NCBI GenBank assembly: GCA_947589165.1
Contig: CANQCH010000001.1
Span: 1 to 47,435, forward strand
DNA: 47,435 nucleotides
DNA from: an uncultured Bacilli bacterium
GTDB taxonomy: Bacteria > Bacillota_I > Bacilli_A > RF39 > UBA660
Reading direction: 5' to 3'
Shown here: positions 33,486-42,229 of the stretch, piece by piece
Numbering within the stretch: the first letter of the stretch is position 1
How the letters are laid out: each line of letters starts with the position of its first letter
Translations under genes and position numbers: made by a program
Notes under the pieces: model-generated
Database searches by the model: none
What the model was told of the DNA's origin: nothing
Seen by the model: the letters and a program-made list of their open reading frames with translations, nothing else

Positions 33486-34922
33486 TTATTGCATTTCTTC
33501 TAATAAATTTTTTAAAATATCTTTCGTTAAAATCGGATTAGCTTTACCTCTAGTTTCTTTCATGACTTGACCAACAAAGAAATCAAATAAATTACTCCGA
33601 CCATTTAAATAAGCCTTAACTTCATTCGGATTATTTTGTAAAATATCTCGAATTAAGTTCATCAAAGTCGTCTCATCAGAAATTTGACTATCTTCAGCTT
33701 TTAAAAAGGTTTTAATTTCTTTTTCTTCCTGAAGAACTTGTTTAAATATTTCTTTAGCTTGCTTAGATGAAATCGTTCCTTCTTTAATTAAAGTAAGTAA
33801 TTCTTTTAATCGCTTGGGGGTTAAATAGATCTCTTTAATGGTTTTATTAGTTTGATTTAAATAACCCATGATTTGGGTCGTTAGCCAATTACTAGCCATT
33901 TTAGCATCAAGATCCAATTTTAAACATTCTTCAAAATAATCCGCGATGTCTTTATCTTTAATTATCGTGGCAATTTCCGACTTTGTTAAATTATATTTTT
34001 CCGCATATAATTTTTCGCGTTCTAAAGGTAACATCGGAATTGTTTTTTTTATTTTCGCTATCCAAGTAGCATCAAGATGAAATTTAGGAATATTAGGTTC
34101 TACAAAATATTTATAATCAATGGCATCGACTTTACTCCGCATTCTTTTGGTAGTTCCTGTTTCTTCGTCAAAACGGCGGGTTTCTTGTTCAACTTCCGCA
34201 TAACGCCCTTCTCTTTTTAACGTACTTTGCCGTTTAATTTCGTATTCGATGGCTTCAACGATATTAAGAAAACCATTAATATTTTTAACTTCGACTTTCG
34301 TACCTAAAGTATTGCTTCCTTTATCGCGAATCGATATATTAGCATCACAGCGAATTTGCCCCTTTTTTAAATCGGCTTCGGAAACATCACAATATTGGTA
34401 AACTAAGCGCATATATTCCAAAAAAGCTAAAACTTCCGCCGAACTATGAAAACAAGGTTCGGTAACTAATTCCAATAATGGTACACCTGCGCGATTATAA
34501 TCTATTAAGGATACATCAAAATAATGGCTTAAGCTCGCACTATCTTCTTCGAGATGAATATCATGAATCTTCACCGTTTTTATTTTATCATCAACTAAAA
34601 TATCAATTTGGCCATTAGTCCCAATGGGATCAGTATTTTGGGTAATTTGATAGCCTTTTGGTAAATCCGGATAATAATAATTTTTCCGATCAAAATACAA
34701 ATATTCGGGAATTTGACAATTTAATACTAAAGCCACTTTTAAGGCATCTTGGACACATTTGCGATTAACTTCTGGTAAAATCCCGGGAAAAGCTAAATCA
34801 ATTGGATGAACATTAGCATTGGCTAATTCATTAAAATTATTCGGTGCCGGCGAAAATACTTTCGAATTACTTTTTAATTCGCAGTGCATTTCAATCCCAA
34901 TTACAGCTTCGTAATCATTCAT
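33486..34922 (-). CDS. gatB: Asp-tRNA(Asn)/Glu-tRNA(Gln) amidotransferase subunit B
   Basis: YE.VIGIE.H..L and the full GatB/YqeY architecture, 478 aa. ATGA overlap with gatA. Confidence 0.95.
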   Translation of the reverse strand: MNDYEAVIGIEMHCELKSNSKVFSPAPNNFNELANANVHPIDLAFPGILPEVNRKCVQDALKVALVLNCQIPEYLYFDRKNYYYPDLPKGYQITQNTDPIGTNGQIDILVDDKIKTVKIHDIHLEEDSASLSHYFDVSLIDYNRAGVPLLELVTEPCFHSSAEVLAFLEYMRLVYQYCDVSEADLKKGQIRCDANISIRDKGSNTLGTKVEVKNINGFLNIVEAIEYEIKRQSTLKREGRYAEVEQETRRFDEETGTTKRMRSKVDAIDYKYFVEPNIPKFHLDATWIAKIKKTIPMLPLEREKLYAEKYNLTKSEIATIIKDKDIADYFEECLKLDLDAKMASNWLTTQIMGYLNQTNKTIKEIYLTPKRLKELLTLIKEGTISSKQAKEIFKQVLQEEKEIKTFLKAEDSQISDETTLMNLIRDILQNNPNEVKAYLNGRSNLFDFFVGQVMKETRGKANPILTKDILKNLLEEMQ

Positions 34923-36379
34923 TTTCTTACCTCCCCGGCAATCATATTGGCATAGTTCATTTTTTGTTCTAAAGCATAGGCAATATTTAAAACATTAGCA
35001 TCATCGTAACAATTACCGGTAATATTAACCCCAACCGGTAAATTATTTATAAAACCATTGGGAATGGTAATTGATGGAAATCCGCCAAAATTACCAATTT
35101 GCAAATGTTCTTCCAAAATTTCAGTATCTTCACTTAAAAGATCTTCGGCGCCATCTAAATGTTTGGCAGGTCCACTTCCCACTGGGAGAATAACCCCATC
35201 ATAAGTAGCAAATAAGTTTTTCCAAGCATCAACGAGTAACCGTCGAACTCTTTGGGCATTTTTGAAATATTTTTCTTGATTTTCTTTTTGTAAAACATAA
35301 GAACCGATGACAAACCGTCTTTTAATAAGTGGAGAAAATCCTTTAGTCCGATGATCTTTCATCATAGCATTAATATTTTCCCCTTCGCCGCGGGGGCCAA
35401 AAATAATTCCGGTTAAATTAGATAAATTACTAGTTGCTTCCGCATAAGATAAGATTATATATACGGCCGGTTCGACCGCTAGCAAATTTTTATCAATACT
35501 AACTTCATCAACAATCATCCCCAGATCCCGACAAATTTTTATTGTTTGGGCAAAATTAGTTAAATGCGCTTTTAATTCATTTGTCGCTTTCGGATAATTA
35601 CTAATATCACAAATTTCTTTAATATAACACAATTTTTTTCCTTTTACATCGCCATTTAAACTAGCTTGTAAATGCACATTTTGGGAATCCCAAGAAGTCA
35701 TATCATGGGGATCTTTACCTTTCATATTATCCATTACAATCGCAGCATCCATGACAGAACGAGTTAAAACTCCACAGTGATCTAAACTAGAAGCATAAGG
35801 AAATAAACCATAACGGGAAACTAAACCATAAGTCGGTTTATAGCCAACAATGCCACAATAGGCGGCAGGTTTCCGAATCGAATCACCAGTATCAGATCCT
35901 AAAGCATAAGGATAACAACCGGCTGCTACCGCTGCCGCTGAACCAGCTGATGAACCAGCACACATCCGATCTTGAGCCCAGGGATTACGAATAATTCCTG
36001 TATGAGCTGTCGTCCCTGTACCACCCATGCCAAATTCATCCAAAGCAGTTTTATTTACCATAATAGCTCCAGCATTAGTTAAATTTTTTACCGCCGTAGC
36101 ATCAAATATTGGCACATAATCTTTTAAAGTATTACTTGAACCCGTCGACAAAACGCCTTTTGTCGCATAGTTATCTTTAACTCCGTAAGGAATTCCCGAT
36201 AATAAATTATCCGTCACTTCTCTTCCTTTTGCTTCATCTAAAATAGTCACGAAAGCATTACATTTTTCTTCTATTTCGTGGGATTTTGTTAAAGACTCTT
36301 GGACCAACTCTTGACTTGTAACCTCGCCCTTTTTTAAGGCTTCATGAATTTCTACAATACTTTTATTCATGTACGTCAT
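34919..36379 (-). CDS. gatA: Amidotransferase subunit A (amidase signature)
   Basis: Amidase signature GGSSAGSAAAVAAG-like (GSSAGSAAAVAAG) and DTGDSIR. Confidence 0.95.
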   Translation of the reverse strand: MTYMNKSIVEIHEALKKGEVTSQELVQESLTKSHEIEEKCNAFVTILDEAKGREVTDNLLSGIPYGVKDNYATKGVLSTGSSNTLKDYVPIFDATAVKNLTNAGAIMVNKTALDEFGMGGTGTTAHTGIIRNPWAQDRMCAGSSAGSAAAVAAGCYPYALGSDTGDSIRKPAAYCGIVGYKPTYGLVSRYGLFPYASSLDHCGVLTRSVMDAAIVMDNMKGKDPHDMTSWDSQNVHLQASLNGDVKGKKLCYIKEICDISNYPKATNELKAHLTNFAQTIKICRDLGMIVDEVSIDKNLLAVEPAVYIILSYAEATSNLSNLTGIIFGPRGEGENINAMMKDHRTKGFSPLIKRRFVIGSYVLQKENQEKYFKNAQRVRRLLVDAWKNLFATYDGVILPVGSGPAKHLDGAEDLLSEDTEILEEHLQIGNFGGFPSITIPNGFINNLPVGVNITGNCYDDANVLNIAYALEQKMNYANMIAGEVRK

Positions 36380-36677
36380 TTGTATTCACCACCTTTGGTA
36401 CCACAATTTCCCGGTCTTCAAAATCATCACAATTACTTAATACTTCTTCAATTGGTAAACCTTCTACCGCGACATCATCTCTTAATTCTACAGTAAAATC
36501 ATCTAGACAATGTGTCATCGGTTCTACTTTGGAAATATCCTTAATTTCCGTTACTTTATCCATTGTTGCTTCAATAATATCCATTTCTTGTAAAACCATT
36601 TCATTTTCCGTAGGTGTTAAACCAATTAATAATTTATCCGCATAATCGTCAACCATTGCTTTTGTAAATTTACTCAT
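36363..36677 (-). CDS. gatC: Amidotransferase subunit C
   Basis: About 100-aa acidic protein directly upstream of and overlapping gatA. AAGGAAGG RBS. Confidence 0.85.
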   Translation of the reverse strand: MSKFTKAMVDDYADKLLIGLTPTENEMVLQEMDIIEATMDKVTEIKDISKVEPMTHCLDDFTVELRDDVAVEGLPIEEVLSNCDDFEDREIVVPKVVNTNDVHE

Positions 36678-36764: not shown

Positions 36765-37643
36765 TCAAGAAATGAGCTCAATATATTGATGCCGAATCCC
36801 TTTTAATTCTTTTGGTTTAATTGTTAAACCACATTGTAACCGCCGCGCCAAAGGAACACTTTCGGTAATATTTTGCTTCATAAATAAAGGATTAGCACTA
36901 TAAAAGTTAAAATCTCTAAATAATCCTTTAAAATTTTGGTCATTAAAGAAATCTATCGTTGGCGCACTAGGTGTCAAGACATTAGTTTTATAATCTTTGA
37001 TTAAATTTTCCAAAATTGAAGCTTGCATAAAGTTAATTATATTTACGGTCTTATGTGGTATCGCCATCGCTACGTCTAAGATTAACATCGAAGCATAAAA
37101 ATTAGCTAAATGACTAAGTGGTTCAAATAAAGTTTTATGATTAGCCAATTTATGATCGTAAATGGCTAACATTTCTTCAATACTAGCCGGCAAATTTTCA
37201 ATATTAGCTTCAAAATCTAATCCCGTAAATAAAATTTTATGTAAAATGTTGGCGCGAATAATAACTGCTTCCAAATTTTTAGCAGAAGTACTAGCAATAT
37301 GCCATTGATTAATTTTTTCAATCTCGATTGCTAAGCAATAAATAATATTTAAAATTTGAATAATTAAATTGTCCTTATCCGAAAAAGAATGAAAATTTTC
37401 ATTCATAAAGAGTGGTTTACTATCTTTTAAGGAAGAATTAATAATTAATCGCCGTTCATCATAACTATATAAAATATCTGGATTTTCACTATAAATGATA
37501 TTTGTAAATGTTACTTTGTCCAAATATGGTACCAAGTCTTTTTCTTTAACTATTATTGAAACGATTTCCGCGATATCGCGATTATTAATCTTTCTTTTCG
37601 TATCAATGATATTTTCTACAATTAAAGCTAATTTTTTAACCAT
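36765..37643 (-). CDS. Hypothetical protein (P1)
   Basis: 292-aa ORF with a GAGGGGGG RBS and its own consensus promoter. I recognise no domain. Confidence 0.65.
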   Translation of the reverse strand: MVKKLALIVENIIDTKRKINNRDIAEIVSIIVKEKDLVPYLDKVTFTNIIYSENPDILYSYDERRLIINSSLKDSKPLFMNENFHSFSDKDNLIIQILNIIYCLAIEIEKINQWHIASTSAKNLEAVIIRANILHKILFTGLDFEANIENLPASIEEMLAIYDHKLANHKTLFEPLSHLANFYASMLILDVAMAIPHKTVNIINFMQASILENLIKDYKTNVLTPSAPTIDFFNDQNFKGLFRDFNFYSANPLFMKQNITESVPLARRLQCGLTIKPKELKGIRHQYIELIS

Positions 37644-37673: not shown

Positions 37674-37702
37674 ATTATAAATAAAATATTAATTTTTGTC
37701 AA
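37674..37702 (-). promoter_or_regulatory. Consensus sigma-A promoter for P1
   Basis: Minus strand reads TTGACA (37702..37697), a 17-nt spacer, then TATAAT (37679..37674). Confidence 0.7.
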
Positions 37703-37703
37703 G

Positions 37704-37727
37704 AAAAAAGCCTTTTAAGGCTTTTTT
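37704..37727. terminator. Hairpin at the end of P2
   Basis: AAAAAAGCC-ttttaa-GGCTTTTTT is symmetric. It overlaps the last P2 codons and stop. Confidence 0.55.
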
Positions 37728-38284
37728 CTTCGCGATAATGCAAAGACATCATCAATAAATAACGGATTATACATTAAAAAACGATTTATTTCATCAGTTA
37801 AAATTTGACATCCTTTTTGATCAATATTAGTAAAAGTAAAATCCGATAAGATTCTTGTTAATGGTACTTGATAAGCCTTTTTTGCCGTTTCGCCATCAGT
37901 ATAAGATAAAATATTGCCATCCAAAGCTTCAATTTTACCAAAAGTTTCCGTTTCTCCAATTAGTAAAAAATCAAAATCACTTTGATTAGCTACCGGATAT
38001 GCTAAGCTAAAAGTATTATCAAAATTAAATAAAGCTTGAAAACTGGTTTTAGCCAAACAATTTTCCGGATTAGTAACTGCTTCTAAGGCTAGTTCATTAT
38101 CTAAAGCTTGAATTTTTCTTTGCCTTAATAAATGATTAATAATATCTTGTTCTTCATAGACATCATTTTGACGAATTCGGTATAAAGTTTGCCGAATTAT
38201 ATTTTGGCGGGCACTATAACTAAGATGATAGGCATCATTATCTAAAATATTTAATAATTTTTGGGTTAATTCAAATGCCGTCAT
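37715..38284 (-). CDS. Hypothetical protein (P2)
   Basis: 189-aa ORF. AAGGAAAGGA RBS. The start lies 14 nt downstream of the asnS stop. I recognise no domain. Confidence 0.65.
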   Translation of the reverse strand: MTAFELTQKLLNILDNDAYHLSYSARQNIIRQTLYRIRQNDVYEEQDIINHLLRQRKIQALDNELALEAVTNPENCLAKTSFQALFNFDNTFSLAYPVANQSDFDFLLIGETETFGKIEALDGNILSYTDGETAKKAYQVPLTRILSDFTFTNIDQKGCQILTDEINRFLMYNPLFIDDVFALSRRKKP

Positions 38285-38298
38285 AAAATATCCTTTCC

Positions 38299-39663
38299 TT
38301 AATATTCACAATTTCCTGGCGTCCGGGGATAAGGGATTACATCCCGAATATTATCGACACCCGTTAGGTAAATAATTAAACGTTCAAAACCCATGCCAAA
38401 GCCTGAATGAACGCAGCCGCCATAACGCCGAAGATTTACATACCATTCCATATCTTCTGGTTTCATTTTTAATTCTTTCATCCGGGTAACTAATTTTTCG
38501 TAATCTTCTTCTCTTTGACTACCACCCATTAATTCGCCCGCTCCAGGTACTTCTAAATCCACGGCGGCTACCGTTTTGCCATCGGGATTTTGTTTCATAT
38601 AGAATGCTTTAATATCCTTAGGCCAATTTTTGATAAAAACGGGACCATGAAAATAATCCGTGATATATTTTTCATGTTCTTTAGCAATATCCCCACCAAC
38701 CTCAGGCATAAATTCCCATTTTACCGGCGCTTCTTGTAATATTTTAATCACATCCGCATGATCAATTCGCACAAATTGGCTATTTACTAAGTTCGTTAAT
38801 TTCGTAATAAGACCCTTTTCCACAAAATTATCACATAATTCTAATTCTTTAGGACAATTATCTAGCACGTATTGTACGACATATTTTAACATTTCTTCCA
38901 TAATATCCATATTGCCAGCCAAATCGCAAAAGGCAATTTCTGGTTCAATCATCCAAAATTCTGAAGCATGCGTTTTAGTATTCGAATTTTCGGCGCGAAA
39001 AGTAGGCCCAAAAGTATAAGTTTTTTTATAAGCTAACGCAAAGGTTTCCGCTTCTAGTTGCCCACTCACAGTTAAATTAGTCATTTTCCCAAAGAAATCT
39101 TAGCGATAATCAATATCCCCTTTTAATTTAGCAAGTGGCAAAGTGGTAACTTGAAACATTTCTCCGGCCCCTTCACAGTCACTAGCCGTAATTAATGGGG
39201 CATGAAAATAGACATAACCACGATCTTGAAAATATTTATGGATTGCATAAGCTGCAGTACTCCGAATGCGAAAAACAGCTTGAAAAAGATTAGTACGTGG
39301 CCGTAAATAAGCTACTTCCCGGAGAAATTCCCGCGTATGTCTTTTGGGTTGAATCGGATAATCTTCCGGACAGTCACCTAAAAGCGTAATTTCTTGTGCT
39401 TGAAGTTCAATATCTTGTTTCCCTTTAGATGGGACAATTATTCCTTTAACATTAATCGCACAACCTACTAAAAGTTTTTGAATATCTTTAAAATTGGCTA
39501 ACGACTCATCATAAACAATTTGTAAATGTTCTTGATGCGTACCATCGGAAAAATCAATAAAACCAAAAGTCTTTTGATCTCGGTGATTACGAATCCAACC
39601 CGAAATCGTAACTTCTTGATTTAAATATTTTTTCGTATCTTGAAATATGTCTCTTAAATCCAT
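38299..39663 (-). pseudogene. asnS: Asparaginyl-tRNA synthetase interrupted by a single in-frame TAA (39102..39100)
   Basis: ORFs 39100..39663 (OB-fold anticodon-binding part) and 38299..39084 (class II catalytic core) are in the same frame. The junction reads DIDYR*DFFGKMTNLTVSGQLEAE. Motif 2 (FRAENSNTKTHASEFWMIEPE) and motif 3 (GFGMGFERL) are intact. Confidence 0.85.
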
Positions 39664-39677
39664 ATTAGTCTCCTTTT

Positions 39678-40967
39678 TTATGGGGTAAGTCGTGATGGAC
39701 CCCTAAATATAAACATTTCTTCTTTTAAGGATGGAATGCCTAATAAAAGCATGGTCAACCGGTCAACGCCAATGGCAAAGCCTCCATGAGGCGGACACCC
39801 ATAACGGAAAAATTGGAGATAAAATTCGACATCTTTATCTAAACCTTTTTCCCGGGCTTGTTTTGTTAATTCTTCATAACGATGTTCTCTTTGCGCTCCG
39901 GTAGTAATTTCAGTGCCTTTCCATATCAAATCAAACCCTTGGGGTACATCATCTTTCCGCATGTGATAGAATGCTCTTTTTGTTTTGGCAAAATCGGTTA
40001 CAAAGATAAATTCATGGCCGTATTCTTCCATAGCAAAACGGGAAGTTAATTTTTCGGCTTCAGCATTCATATCGCCAATATCATACGCCGGAATTTCATA
40101 ATTATACCTTTTATTTAATTCTTGATATAAATCTTGTAATTTAATCCGCGGGAATGGCCGTTTAGGAATAATAACATCGGTTGCAAAAAGACGTTTAATT
40201 TCTTCGCCATATAATTCTTTAACCTTGGTTAAACCGGCGATTAATAATTCTTCTTCTAAATCCATTACATCAGTATAAGAATCGATATATGCAAATTCTA
40301 AGTCAAATGAAGTAAATTCGGTAGTATGCCGATTCGTATTGGAATTTTCCGCCCGAAATGCTGGTGCAACTTCAAAAATTCGTTCTAAACCACTCGCGAT
40401 TGCCATTTGCTTATAAAATTGGGGACTTTGCGCTAAATAGGCTTTACGATCAAAATATTTAACTTCAAAAACATCTGAACCAGATTCACTCGCCGTGGCT
40501 ATTAATTTGGGCGTATGAATTTCCGTAAAGTTTTGTTTTATTAAAAAGGAACGCATACCATCCACAAAAGCTGATTGTACTTTAAGCATTAAATTATTTT
40601 TTTCCGTCCGTAAATCAATCCAACGGTAATCTAATCGTGTATCAATATTGGCGGTTACATCTATTGGTAACATTTCGGCTTTACTTAAAATTTTAAGACT
40701 TTCGGGAATAAATTCTCTTCCCCCTTGTTTAACATATTCACTTAATTGCATTTTGCCGGTAAATTCTAAAATGCTATTTGCTAAAACGCCATCTAATTCT
40801 TTAACTAAAGCGGCATTTTGGGCTTTATCAAGCGAAACTTGAATTTTCCCACTGGCATCTTTTAAAATGATAAAAAGCATATATTTTGTATCCCGTATTG
40901 CTTCGGCCCAACCACTAATTCTCGCTTCTTCGCCAGCTTCTAAATTATTAATAAGTACTCTTTTCAT
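39678..40967 (-). CDS. aspS: Aspartyl-tRNA synthetase, short archaeal/type-2 form lacking the bacterial GAD insertion
   Basis: About 429 aa. FRAENSNTNRHTTEF and GGFAIGVDRL motifs. AGGAG RBS before the ATG at 40967 (the ORF track starts at GTG 40973). Confidence 0.9.
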   Translation of the reverse strand: MKRVLINNLEAGEEARISGWAEAIRDTKYMLFIILKDASGKIQVSLDKAQNAALVKELDGVLANSILEFTGKMQLSEYVKQGGREFIPESLKILSKAEMLPIDVTANIDTRLDYRWIDLRTEKNNLMLKVQSAFVDGMRSFLIKQNFTEIHTPKLIATASESGSDVFEVKYFDRKAYLAQSPQFYKQMAIASGLERIFEVAPAFRAENSNTNRHTTEFTSFDLEFAYIDSYTDVMDLEEELLIAGLTKVKELYGEEIKRLFATDVIIPKRPFPRIKLQDLYQELNKRYNYEIPAYDIGDMNAEAEKLTSRFAMEEYGHEFIFVTDFAKTKRAFYHMRKDDVPQGFDLIWKGTEITTGAQREHRYEELTKQAREKGLDKDVEFYLQFFRYGCPPHGGFAIGVDRLTMLLLGIPSLKEEMFIFRGPSRLTP

Positions 40968-40975
40968 AATCACTC

Positions 40976-42229
40976 CTATATATTTGAAATTAAAAAATCC
41001 ACAATTTCATTTTCATCAATTTTCATTTCTTCTTTAGTTGCATTATCTTTGACATTAATTAAACCTTTTTTTAAATCTTCACTATTTAATATAAGTAAAA
41101 ACTTACTATTTAAACTATCCGCGACTTTAAATTGACTTTTTAAACTTAAATTATTACTATTAATTTCCGTTTTAACATGATTTAAACGTAAATCTTGGGC
41201 TAATTTTATCCCATATATTTTTTCTTCTTCATTAACACACATAATGTAAGCATCAACATTTTGGGGTATTTCACTCGTTGGTAAAATTTTCTTTAAGGCT
41301 AACATAATCCGGTCAAGGCCTAAGCCAAAACCAATTGCTGGTAAATGTGGCCCATCTAATTTTTCCACTAAAGTATTATATCTGCCTCCAGCGCCTAAGG
41401 CTAAACCATCATCATCGCTAATATATTCCCAAACATGATAATCATAGTAATCTAACCCTCGAACTAAATGATTATCAACTTCATAATCAACATCTAACAT
41501 CGTTAATAATTCTTTTAATTTATTAAATTTACTTTTACTTTCGGCCGATAAATAATCTAAAATATTTGGTAAATTTTGCATTATGGTCTGATCTTTATCG
41601 ACCTTGCAATCTAGGATTCTTAAAGGATTTTTTTCATATCGGGTTTGGCAGTCTGCACATAAGTCTTTTAAATGCGGTTTTAAATATTTTTTTAAGGCCG
41701 CCGTATAATTTTCGCGCGTTTTTTCATCACCCAAAGAATTTAAATGAACCGTAAAATTTTCTAGTCCTAATTCTTTTAAAAGATTATAACCTAAAGAAAT
41801 AACTTCCGCATCAATTAATACATCATCGGAATTAAAAACTTCCACGCCAAATTGGGTAAGTTCCCGATATCTTCCTGCTTGAGGTCTTTCATAACGATAC
41901 ATCGTTCCTAAATAATAATATTTTAAAACATCATTCCGATTCCCATAAAGTTTATTTTCTATTAAGGCCCGAACTACGCCCGCCGTTCCTTCGGGTCGTA
42001 AAGTTATATTTCGCCCTCCGCGATCGATAAAATCATAAGTTTCTTTCACCACCATGTCACTGGCATCCCCAACACTTCGATGATACAAGTTACGATCTTC
42101 AAAGATCGGTGTCCGAATAAATTCATAATGATAATCTTCCATAAAATCCTGAATACAAGCCGTTATATACTCGTATAATTTAGCATCAAGGCCATATAAA
42201 TCATAAGTTCCTTTAGGTTTAATTAACAT
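40976..42229 (-). CDS. hisS: Histidyl-tRNA synthetase
   Basis: Motifs LRPEGT, YRYERPQAGR.REL.Q, GGRY..L and GFG.GLDR. Confidence 0.93.
   Translation of the reverse strand: MLIKPKGTYDLYGLDAKLYEYITACIQDFMEDYHYEFIRTPIFEDRNLYHRSVGDASDMVVKETYDFIDRGGRNITLRPEGTAGVVRALIENKLYGNRNDVLKYYYLGTMYRYERPQAGRYRELTQFGVEVFNSDDVLIDAEVISLGYNLLKELGLENFTVHLNSLGDEKTRENYTAALKKYLKPHLKDLCADCQTRYEKNPLRILDCKVDKDQTIMQNLPNILDYLSAESKSKFNKLKELLTMLDVDYEVDNHLVRGLDYYDYHVWEYISDDDGLALGAGGRYNTLVEKLDGPHLPAIGFGLGLDRIMLALKKILPTSEIPQNVDAYIMCVNEEEKIYGIKLAQDLRLNHVKTEINSNNLSLKSQFKVADSLNSKFLLILNSEDLKKGLINVKDNATKEEMKIDENEIVDFLISNI

Follow-up and report, generated by a model that had tools for sequence, protein, structure and literature searches.

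An in-frame stop codon in the asparaginyl-tRNA synthetase gene of an uncultured RF39-like bacterium whose relatives have repeatedly lost the gene

The DNA analyzed here, hereafter called the window, is a stretch of 47,435 nucleotides from an uncultured Bacilli bacterium of the RF39 lineage (contig CANQCH010000001.1 of assembly GCA_947589165.1), and it carries on its minus strand a gene for asparaginyl-tRNA synthetase (AsnRS), asnS (38299..39663), that is interrupted by a single in-frame TAA codon. The stop codon is probably a real and very young nonsense allele, most likely the product of ordinary gene decay by no new mechanism, in a lineage from which asnS has disappeared repeatedly. In what follows, genomes are designated by labels, G000 being the studied genome, and congeners are the other species of the same genus.

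The stop codon and its absence from orthologues

The TAA occupies 39102..39100 as codon 188, with G as the next base, and the minus strand at this point reads GAT TAT CGC TAA GAT TTC TTT GGG AAA ATG ACT; the site lies outside any homopolymer or repeat. The open reading frames (ORFs) on its two sides, 39663..39103 (187 codons) and 39099..38302, belong to one common frame, and the downstream ORF, open from 39099, comprises 261 codons from its first ATG (39084..39082) to 38302. The sequence and the ORF translations thus bear out the initial annotation, which had described two same-frame ORFs parted only by the TAA, with an ATG five codons past it. When the TAA is read through, the gene encodes 454 residues with X as residue 188, and this protein scores 615.5 bits against the asparagine--tRNA ligase model NF003037 (cut-off 414 bits) and 555.9 bits against TIGR00457 (cut-off 342.6 bits); each half alone falls below the NF003037 cut-off (194.6 and 395.8 bits). 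As it stands, G000 has no uninterrupted frame for a whole AsnRS.

Pfam places the OB anticodon-binding domain (PF01336) at residues 18-95 of the read-through protein and the class II catalytic domain (PF00152) at residues 115-448. Alignment to solved AsnRS structures (6pqh and 5zg8) showed that class II motifs 1, 2 and 3 are all conserved and that the stop codon falls approximately 70 residues into the catalytic domain, with motif 1 (GYVYFHAPLIT) before it and motifs 2 and 3 after it. Codons 1-187 (39103..39663) therefore encode the OB fold and the beginning of the catalytic domain (~70 residues, with motif 1), while codons 189-454 and the normal TAA stop codon (38299..39099) encode the conserved DFFGK strand and intact motifs 2 and 3. 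The earlier statement that all class II motifs downstream are undamaged holds for motifs 2 and 3, motif 1 being upstream of the stop codon, and the statement that the catalytic half would lack the anticodon-binding domain is right but understates the damage, for motif 1 is missing from that half too.

When asnS was extracted from 19 congeners and aligned, the codon opposite the TAA was AAA in 13, AAG in four and AGG or AGA in two, so that the equivalent of residue 188 is lysine or arginine in all 19, and the surrounding Y-x-K-D-F/L-F is conserved. This residue comes after a surface loop whose length varies, and distant AsnRS proteins either have glutamine or glutamate there or lack the loop. 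The suggestion that the stop codon replaces a variable linker residue is thus not borne out within the genus, variation being seen only further afield, and the suggestion that a single base change from a codon such as AAA would create it is supported by the 13 congeners whose AAA is one A-to-T step away.

Among the 56 species genomes of the genus, 49 contain asnS, and an internal stop codon was found in that of G000 only and in none of the other 48. In a set of 5.8 billion clustered proteins, every one of the 120 best homologues is full length, the closest being 83-84% identical, and an exact look-up among 15 billion proteins returned each half of the interrupted gene as a singleton, on this contig alone. 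No second assembly of the species was found by exact look-up, by homologue search (nothing above 84% identity) or by two scans of metagenome contigs with degenerate patterns, the first of which returned nothing and the second five contigs of a distant organism (67% nucleotide identity) with GAA at the site. A search of the G000 genome for a second asnS found none, and the idea that the interrupted gene might be a redundant duplicate is accordingly not supported.

Further oddities of asnS were encountered in other genomes. Short ORFs for the N-terminal part of AsnRS come from related gut bacteria: P0143 (189 residues, on a 57-kb contig) and P0160 (211 residues, on a 130-kb contig) both finish close to the loop that precedes the stop codon of G000, at most a few residues away, the tail of P0160 being out of frame; they may be further disrupted alleles of asnS. 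The congener G176 has two copies of asnS (contig C30, 52-1410 and 1776-1833), the second of which adjoins a tRNA-like match 90% identical to the tRNA-Asn core, and these may constitute a mobile asnS-tRNA cassette.

Apart from the stop codon, asnS of G000 shows no decay. At the 189 alignment columns where the other 19 sequences do not vary, it has three private substitutions, where other species have zero to six. Its ratio of nonsynonymous to synonymous substitution rates (dN/dS) relative to the three nearest orthologues is 0.07-0.10, compared with 0.085-0.148 among intact genes, and that of the half downstream of the stop codon relative to the same gene of relatives is 0.06-0.09. The initial annotation, which saw no other lesion, was correct in this respect. 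Therefore, the stop codon is either very young or not real. Recombination was also considered, as the N-terminal half of the protein is slightly nearer to that of G084 and the C-terminal half to that of G012, but a mosaic was rejected because a sliding-window comparison of nucleotide sequences shows no breakpoint, the four genes compared being 77-80% identical throughout.

The metagenome-assembled genome (MAG) of G000 consists of 1.01 Mb in 116 contigs and is 89.8% complete. A six-frame scan of all of it for long same-frame ORF pairs parted by one stop codon yielded, ordinary gene junctions aside, three in-frame stop codons without a nearby restart: that of asnS and those of two paralogous genes for large surface proteins, located outside the window (contig C34, position 8372, minus strand; contig C110, position 1297, plus strand) and likewise TAA. 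All three interrupted genes are of kinds that tolerate loss, which argues against random errors, since these would mostly strike essential genes. In control genes of the same MAG collections, no internal stop codon was present among the matches listed for hisS (~125), bacterial-type aspS (94), asnB (56) and gatB (54), approximately 330 in total, and stop codons derived from error look rare in housekeeping genes of these sets. Disrupted asnS was found in two genomes, G000 and G070; in the latter (contig C45, 4300-7400) a short tandem duplication, by which EVKAKD..LREQAY occurs twice, shifts the frame. This may be another asnS in decay within the family, or else the assembly, which is old, may have produced an artefact.

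Loss of asnS in relatives and the acceptor stem of tRNA(Asn)

Across the order, asnS scored above the cut-off in 99 of 121 genomes, most of which are at least 92% complete, and was missing from 22, while hisS was missing from only one (present in 120 of 121). Within the genus, asnS is missing from seven of 56 genomes; among the 34 with a completeness of 90% or more, four lack it. G059 and G006 each carry the slot hisS-aspS-gatC-gatA contiguously on one contig and without asnS; therefore these absences are not assembly gaps. In four asnS-less genomes assembled in 4-20 contigs and 94-95% complete (G059, G060, G076 and G119), a search with a model of the class IIb catalytic domain found just the genes for aspartyl-tRNA synthetase (AspRS) and lysyl-tRNA synthetase (LysRS). 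G119 and G141 have reached the predicted end state, with an archaeal-type AspRS only and no AsnRS. Since AsnRS has been dropped on many occasions in this lineage, it is plausible that a pseudogene has been caught in the act here. A gene remnant spread over three reading frames in the six-contig genome of G119 (contig C3, 119500-123500) was considered as a decayed asnS and rejected, as it is a frameshifted second archaeal-type aspS.

The initial annotation had reasoned that AsnRS becomes dispensable to organisms that combine GatCAB with a non-discriminating AspRS, often of archaeal type. The premise of dispensability is backed by the counts above, but the part of the argument that concerns the archaeal-type AspRS is unsupported: asnS has been lost from 10 of 51 genomes with this enzyme and from 12 of 70 without it, which is no association. 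The presence of an asparagine synthetase gene, which had been proposed as a check, turned out to be uninformative as a marker of dependence on AsnRS: an asnB-type gene is present in G000, but asnB is also kept by 11 of the 22 asnS-less genomes, including the congeners G059 and G060. G000 has no glutaminyl-tRNA synthetase (GlnRS), and GatCAB would therefore be kept regardless of asnS.

In bacteria, GatCAB is reported to depend on U1-A72 in tRNA(Asn) and to reject G1-C72 by means of a 3-10 turn in GatB, a rule established for the enzymes of Neisseria, Staphylococcus and Helicobacter (PMC1635274, PMC2811023), and a survey of 547 genera published in 2014 recorded U1-A72 in all 284 that lack AsnRS (PMC4206432, Table 2). 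The sole tRNA(Asn)(GUU) gene of G000, outside the window (contig C77, 1125-1200), has G1-C72, G73 and an encoded CCA; tRNA(Gln) of the same genome has U1-A72. GatB of G000 aligns end to end with that of Staphylococcus aureus (2df4_B, 420 bits) with no gap at the 3-10 turn, where K183-M184-E185-E186 of the S. aureus protein correspond to D-L-K-K in G000 and to D-T-K-K in most congeners with or without asnS. A difference in this turn between genomes with and without asnS was considered as an explanation, and none was seen.

The G1-C72 pair is not peculiar to G000. It was found in tRNA(Asn) of all 26 congeners examined, including the asnS-less G006, G059, G060, G157, G162 and G167, as well as in G119, G076, G105, G101 and G087, which belong to five other genera and lack asnS. 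For this family, therefore, the U1-A72 rule is no valid guide: either G1-C72 is acceptable to its GatCAB, or an unknown route operates in the asnS-less genomes. In G087 (contig C1, 40862-43937) there are six tandem tRNA-Asn genes, all with G1-C72, in a genome that has two bacterial-type aspS genes and no asnS.

The hisS-gatCAB slot and the archaeal-type aspartyl-tRNA synthetase

The cluster to which asnS belongs is encoded on the minus strand and begins with hisS (40976..42229), followed by an archaeal-type aspS (39678..40973) that ends 14 nucleotides before the start of asnS. Downstream of asnS are two ORFs without a family match, of 189 codons (37715..38284) and 292 codons (36765..37643), both missing at this place in G012, G084 and G134. 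A perfect TTGACA-17-TATAAT promoter-like site (37674..37702, a match to the consensus only) precedes the 292-codon ORF and the block 33486..36677, which contains gatC (36363..36677), gatA (34919..36379) and gatB (33486..34922), all intact. The initial annotation had placed asnS beside both the archaeal-type aspS and gatCAB; the former does adjoin it, but the two ORFs separate it from the latter. An Rfam scan found no T-box or other RNA element at the asnS locus; elsewhere in the window it identified a 6S RNA (RF00013, 29270-29452, minus strand; 56.8 bits with a gathering score of 46.4).

The order of G000 is thus hisS, archaeal-type aspS, interrupted asnS, the two ORFs and gatCAB. Its nearest relative, G012, has hisS, asnS and gatCAB, with a bacterial-type aspS elsewhere; G084 and G134 have archaeal-type aspS, asnS, gatC and gatA, preceded immediately by hisS in G134 and at a distance of ~1.3 kb in G084; G096 has an archaeal-type and a bacterial-type aspS before gatCAB; and G059 has hisS, a bacterial-type aspS and gatCAB. 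Of the 121 genomes of the order, 51 have an archaeal-type AspRS and 84 a bacterial-type one. Judging by the gene orders above, the hisS-gatCAB slot appears to be a hotspot at which the synthetases of Asp-tRNA and Asn-tRNA are swapped.

The product of aspS in G000 is the sole AspRS found in the 89.8%-complete assembly, no bacterial-type aspS having been found there. It has 431 residues and scores 451.4 bits against NF003483 (cut-off 353) and 347.6 bits against TIGR00458, slightly under the cut-off of 368.4; its domains are PF01336 and PF00152 only, with no GAD insertion, and its best solved relatives are AspRS of Thermococcus kodakarensis and AspRS2 of Thermus thermophilus (3nel/1b8a and 1n9w). 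It is 88% identical to AspRS of G084, which belongs to another genus, whereas the adjoining hisS products are only 56% identical, and it differs from the archaeal-type AspRS proteins of the congeners of G000; this comparison suggests lateral exchange of aspS. A histidine and a proline, as in T. thermophilus AspRS2, mark the non-discriminating enzymes among archaeal-type AspRS proteins. In G000 there is glutamate at the position of the histidine, equivalent to W26 of T. kodakarensis, and lysine or glutamine at the position in the L1 loop, a pattern common to the whole family, asnS-less genomes included. Since both marks are missing family-wide whatever the status of asnS, they are uninformative as a test of discrimination.

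Interpretation of the interrupted gene

According to the favored explanation, a single A-to-T change would have converted the lysine codon AAA to TAA at codon 188 of asnS, creating a null allele fixed in the sampled population or common enough there to reach the consensus. Translation would end after the anticodon-binding domain and motif 1, and no active AsnRS would be made. The single archaeal-type AspRS, presumably non-discriminating, would charge tRNA(Asn) with aspartate, GatCAB would amidate the resulting Asp-tRNA(Asn) provided that it accepts a tRNA(Asn) with G1-C72, and the organism would survive with this indirect synthesis of Asn-tRNA(Asn) as a backup. That the stop codon is real in the organism is something that we infer, rather than a result of the sequence comparisons themselves.

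Several observations weigh against this explanation. The tRNA(Asn) of G000 does not have the U1-A72 pair expected for the indirect route, and GatB was searched for an archaeal-like loss of the 3-10 turn, which would explain acceptance of G1-C72, with a negative result; given a G1-C72 tRNA(Asn) and a bacterial-type GatB, asnS should by the textbook rule be essential here. In the AspRS subclade of G000 (G084, G134 and G096), no genome is known to lack both AsnRS and a second AspRS, and in an assembly that is 89.8% complete a second aspS could be unassembled. The gene shows neither relaxed selection nor further lesions, a pattern equally expected of an assembly error, and the species is known from a single assembly, so that the base is uncorroborated.

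Some of the same observations favor the view that the TAA arose as an error in the consensus or the assembly of this fragmented MAG, or is a rare variant that the assembler happened to choose, and that the population has a working asnS: one base aside, the gene is indistinguishable from one under full purifying selection, and the rule for GatCAB predicts that the indirect route would fail and asnS would be essential (PMC1635274, PMC2811023, PMC4206432). Such an error is possible, but we consider it clearly less likely than a real stop codon. It is at odds with the lack of in-frame stop codons among the ~330 control matches listed, with the confinement of the three in-frame stop codons of the genome to loss-tolerant kinds of genes and with the location of the site outside any homopolymer or repeat, and the argument from G1-C72 is weakened by the asnS-less relatives that share this tRNA(Asn). 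If the stop codon is real, asnS might still retain activity, either through rare read-through of UAA or through reinitiation at the ATG to give a split enzyme of two fragments. The break is at the end of the length-variable surface loop that is absent from shorter AsnRS proteins, a type of site that tolerates splitting, the ATG is close behind the stop codon, and both halves are still perfectly conserved. Retained activity is nevertheless improbable. Both release factors recognize UAA, the least leaky of the stop codons, and the 26 tRNAs found in G000 include no suppressor tRNA; a protein begun at M194 would be without the conserved DFFGK strand, and the sole Shine-Dalgarno-like bases (GGG) are three nucleotides from the ATG. 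The split is absent from all 48 congeners with asnS, and the short AsnRS-like proteins in the set of 5.8 billion are of scattered lengths, as is typical of fragments at contig ends, with no cluster at 187 residues, so that there is no sign of an arrangement under selection.

It is far less probable still that the C-terminal half functions as an AsnA-like asparagine synthetase or that TAA has been reassigned as a sense codon, and both were rejected along with a suppressor tRNA. The C-terminal ORF is weakly similar to the archaeal "asparagine synthetase A" model NF005052, but its 125 bits are far from the cut-off of 368, the match covers only profile positions 105-348 of 353 and so leaves out motif 1 and the dimer interface, and an asnB-type synthetase is already present. 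Truncated archaeal paralogues of AsnRS act as asparagine synthetase, according to the mention of Roy et al. 2003 in PMC2330236, and the C-terminal ORF resembles them in being a class IIb core without an anticodon-binding domain; these paralogues, however, keep motif 1 and a complete core, whereas the ORF of G000 begins past motif 1 and misses the family cut-off by a wide margin. As for reassignment, TAA is the stop codon of most genes in the genome, aspS and asnS itself among them.

A null allele of asnS would place G000 in the class of bacteria that lack AsnRS and use a non-discriminating AspRS with GatCAB, among them Helicobacter, Chlamydia, Pseudomonas and many Actinobacteria (PMC3367201, PMC4206432). 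Like these bacteria, G000 has GatCAB, a single AspRS and no GlnRS, and it has relatives without any asnS. In contrast to the 284 AsnRS-less genera with U1-A72, G000 and its asnS-less relatives have G1-C72, and in G000 asnS is still there and looks freshly hit. G000 can also be compared with Thermus and Deinococcus, which possess AsnRS, an archaeal-type non-discriminating AspRS2 and GatCAB, as its genome likewise combines genes for AsnRS, an archaeal-type AspRS and GatCAB. Thermus and Deinococcus, however, keep a bacterial discriminating AspRS1 and do not have asnA or asnB, whereas in G000 an asnB-type gene is present and no bacterial AspRS was found; the histidine and proline that mark non-discrimination in AspRS2 are replaced as described above. 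The interrupted gene further resembles the single-hit pseudogenes of dispensable genes in reduced genomes, with one nonsense change, a backed-up function and a lineage in which the gene has been lost completely, and the same process of decay is seen in the frameshifted second aspS of G119 and the disrupted asnS of G070. The lesion, provided that it is real in the organism, is no different from those of ordinary single-hit pseudogenes.

The stop codon alone matters little, for a young pseudogene of a dispensable gene and a wrong base in a MAG are both ordinary, and asnS should be flagged here as disrupted pending read support. Should the stop codon be real, it might, tentatively, be regarded as a snapshot of the family's repeated switch from direct to indirect asparaginylation, taking place on a G1-C72 tRNA(Asn) and under a GatCAB rule that differs from the U1-A72 rule. 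The more interesting part is the family-wide occurrence of G1-C72 tRNA(Asn) in genomes that lack AsnRS. In this family of small-genome gut Bacilli (RF39-like), approximately one genome in five is without AsnRS and every tRNA(Asn) examined has G1-C72; if it is true that the asnS-less genomes live without AsnRS, they would be an exception to the accepted identity rule of bacterial tRNA-dependent asparagine synthesis.

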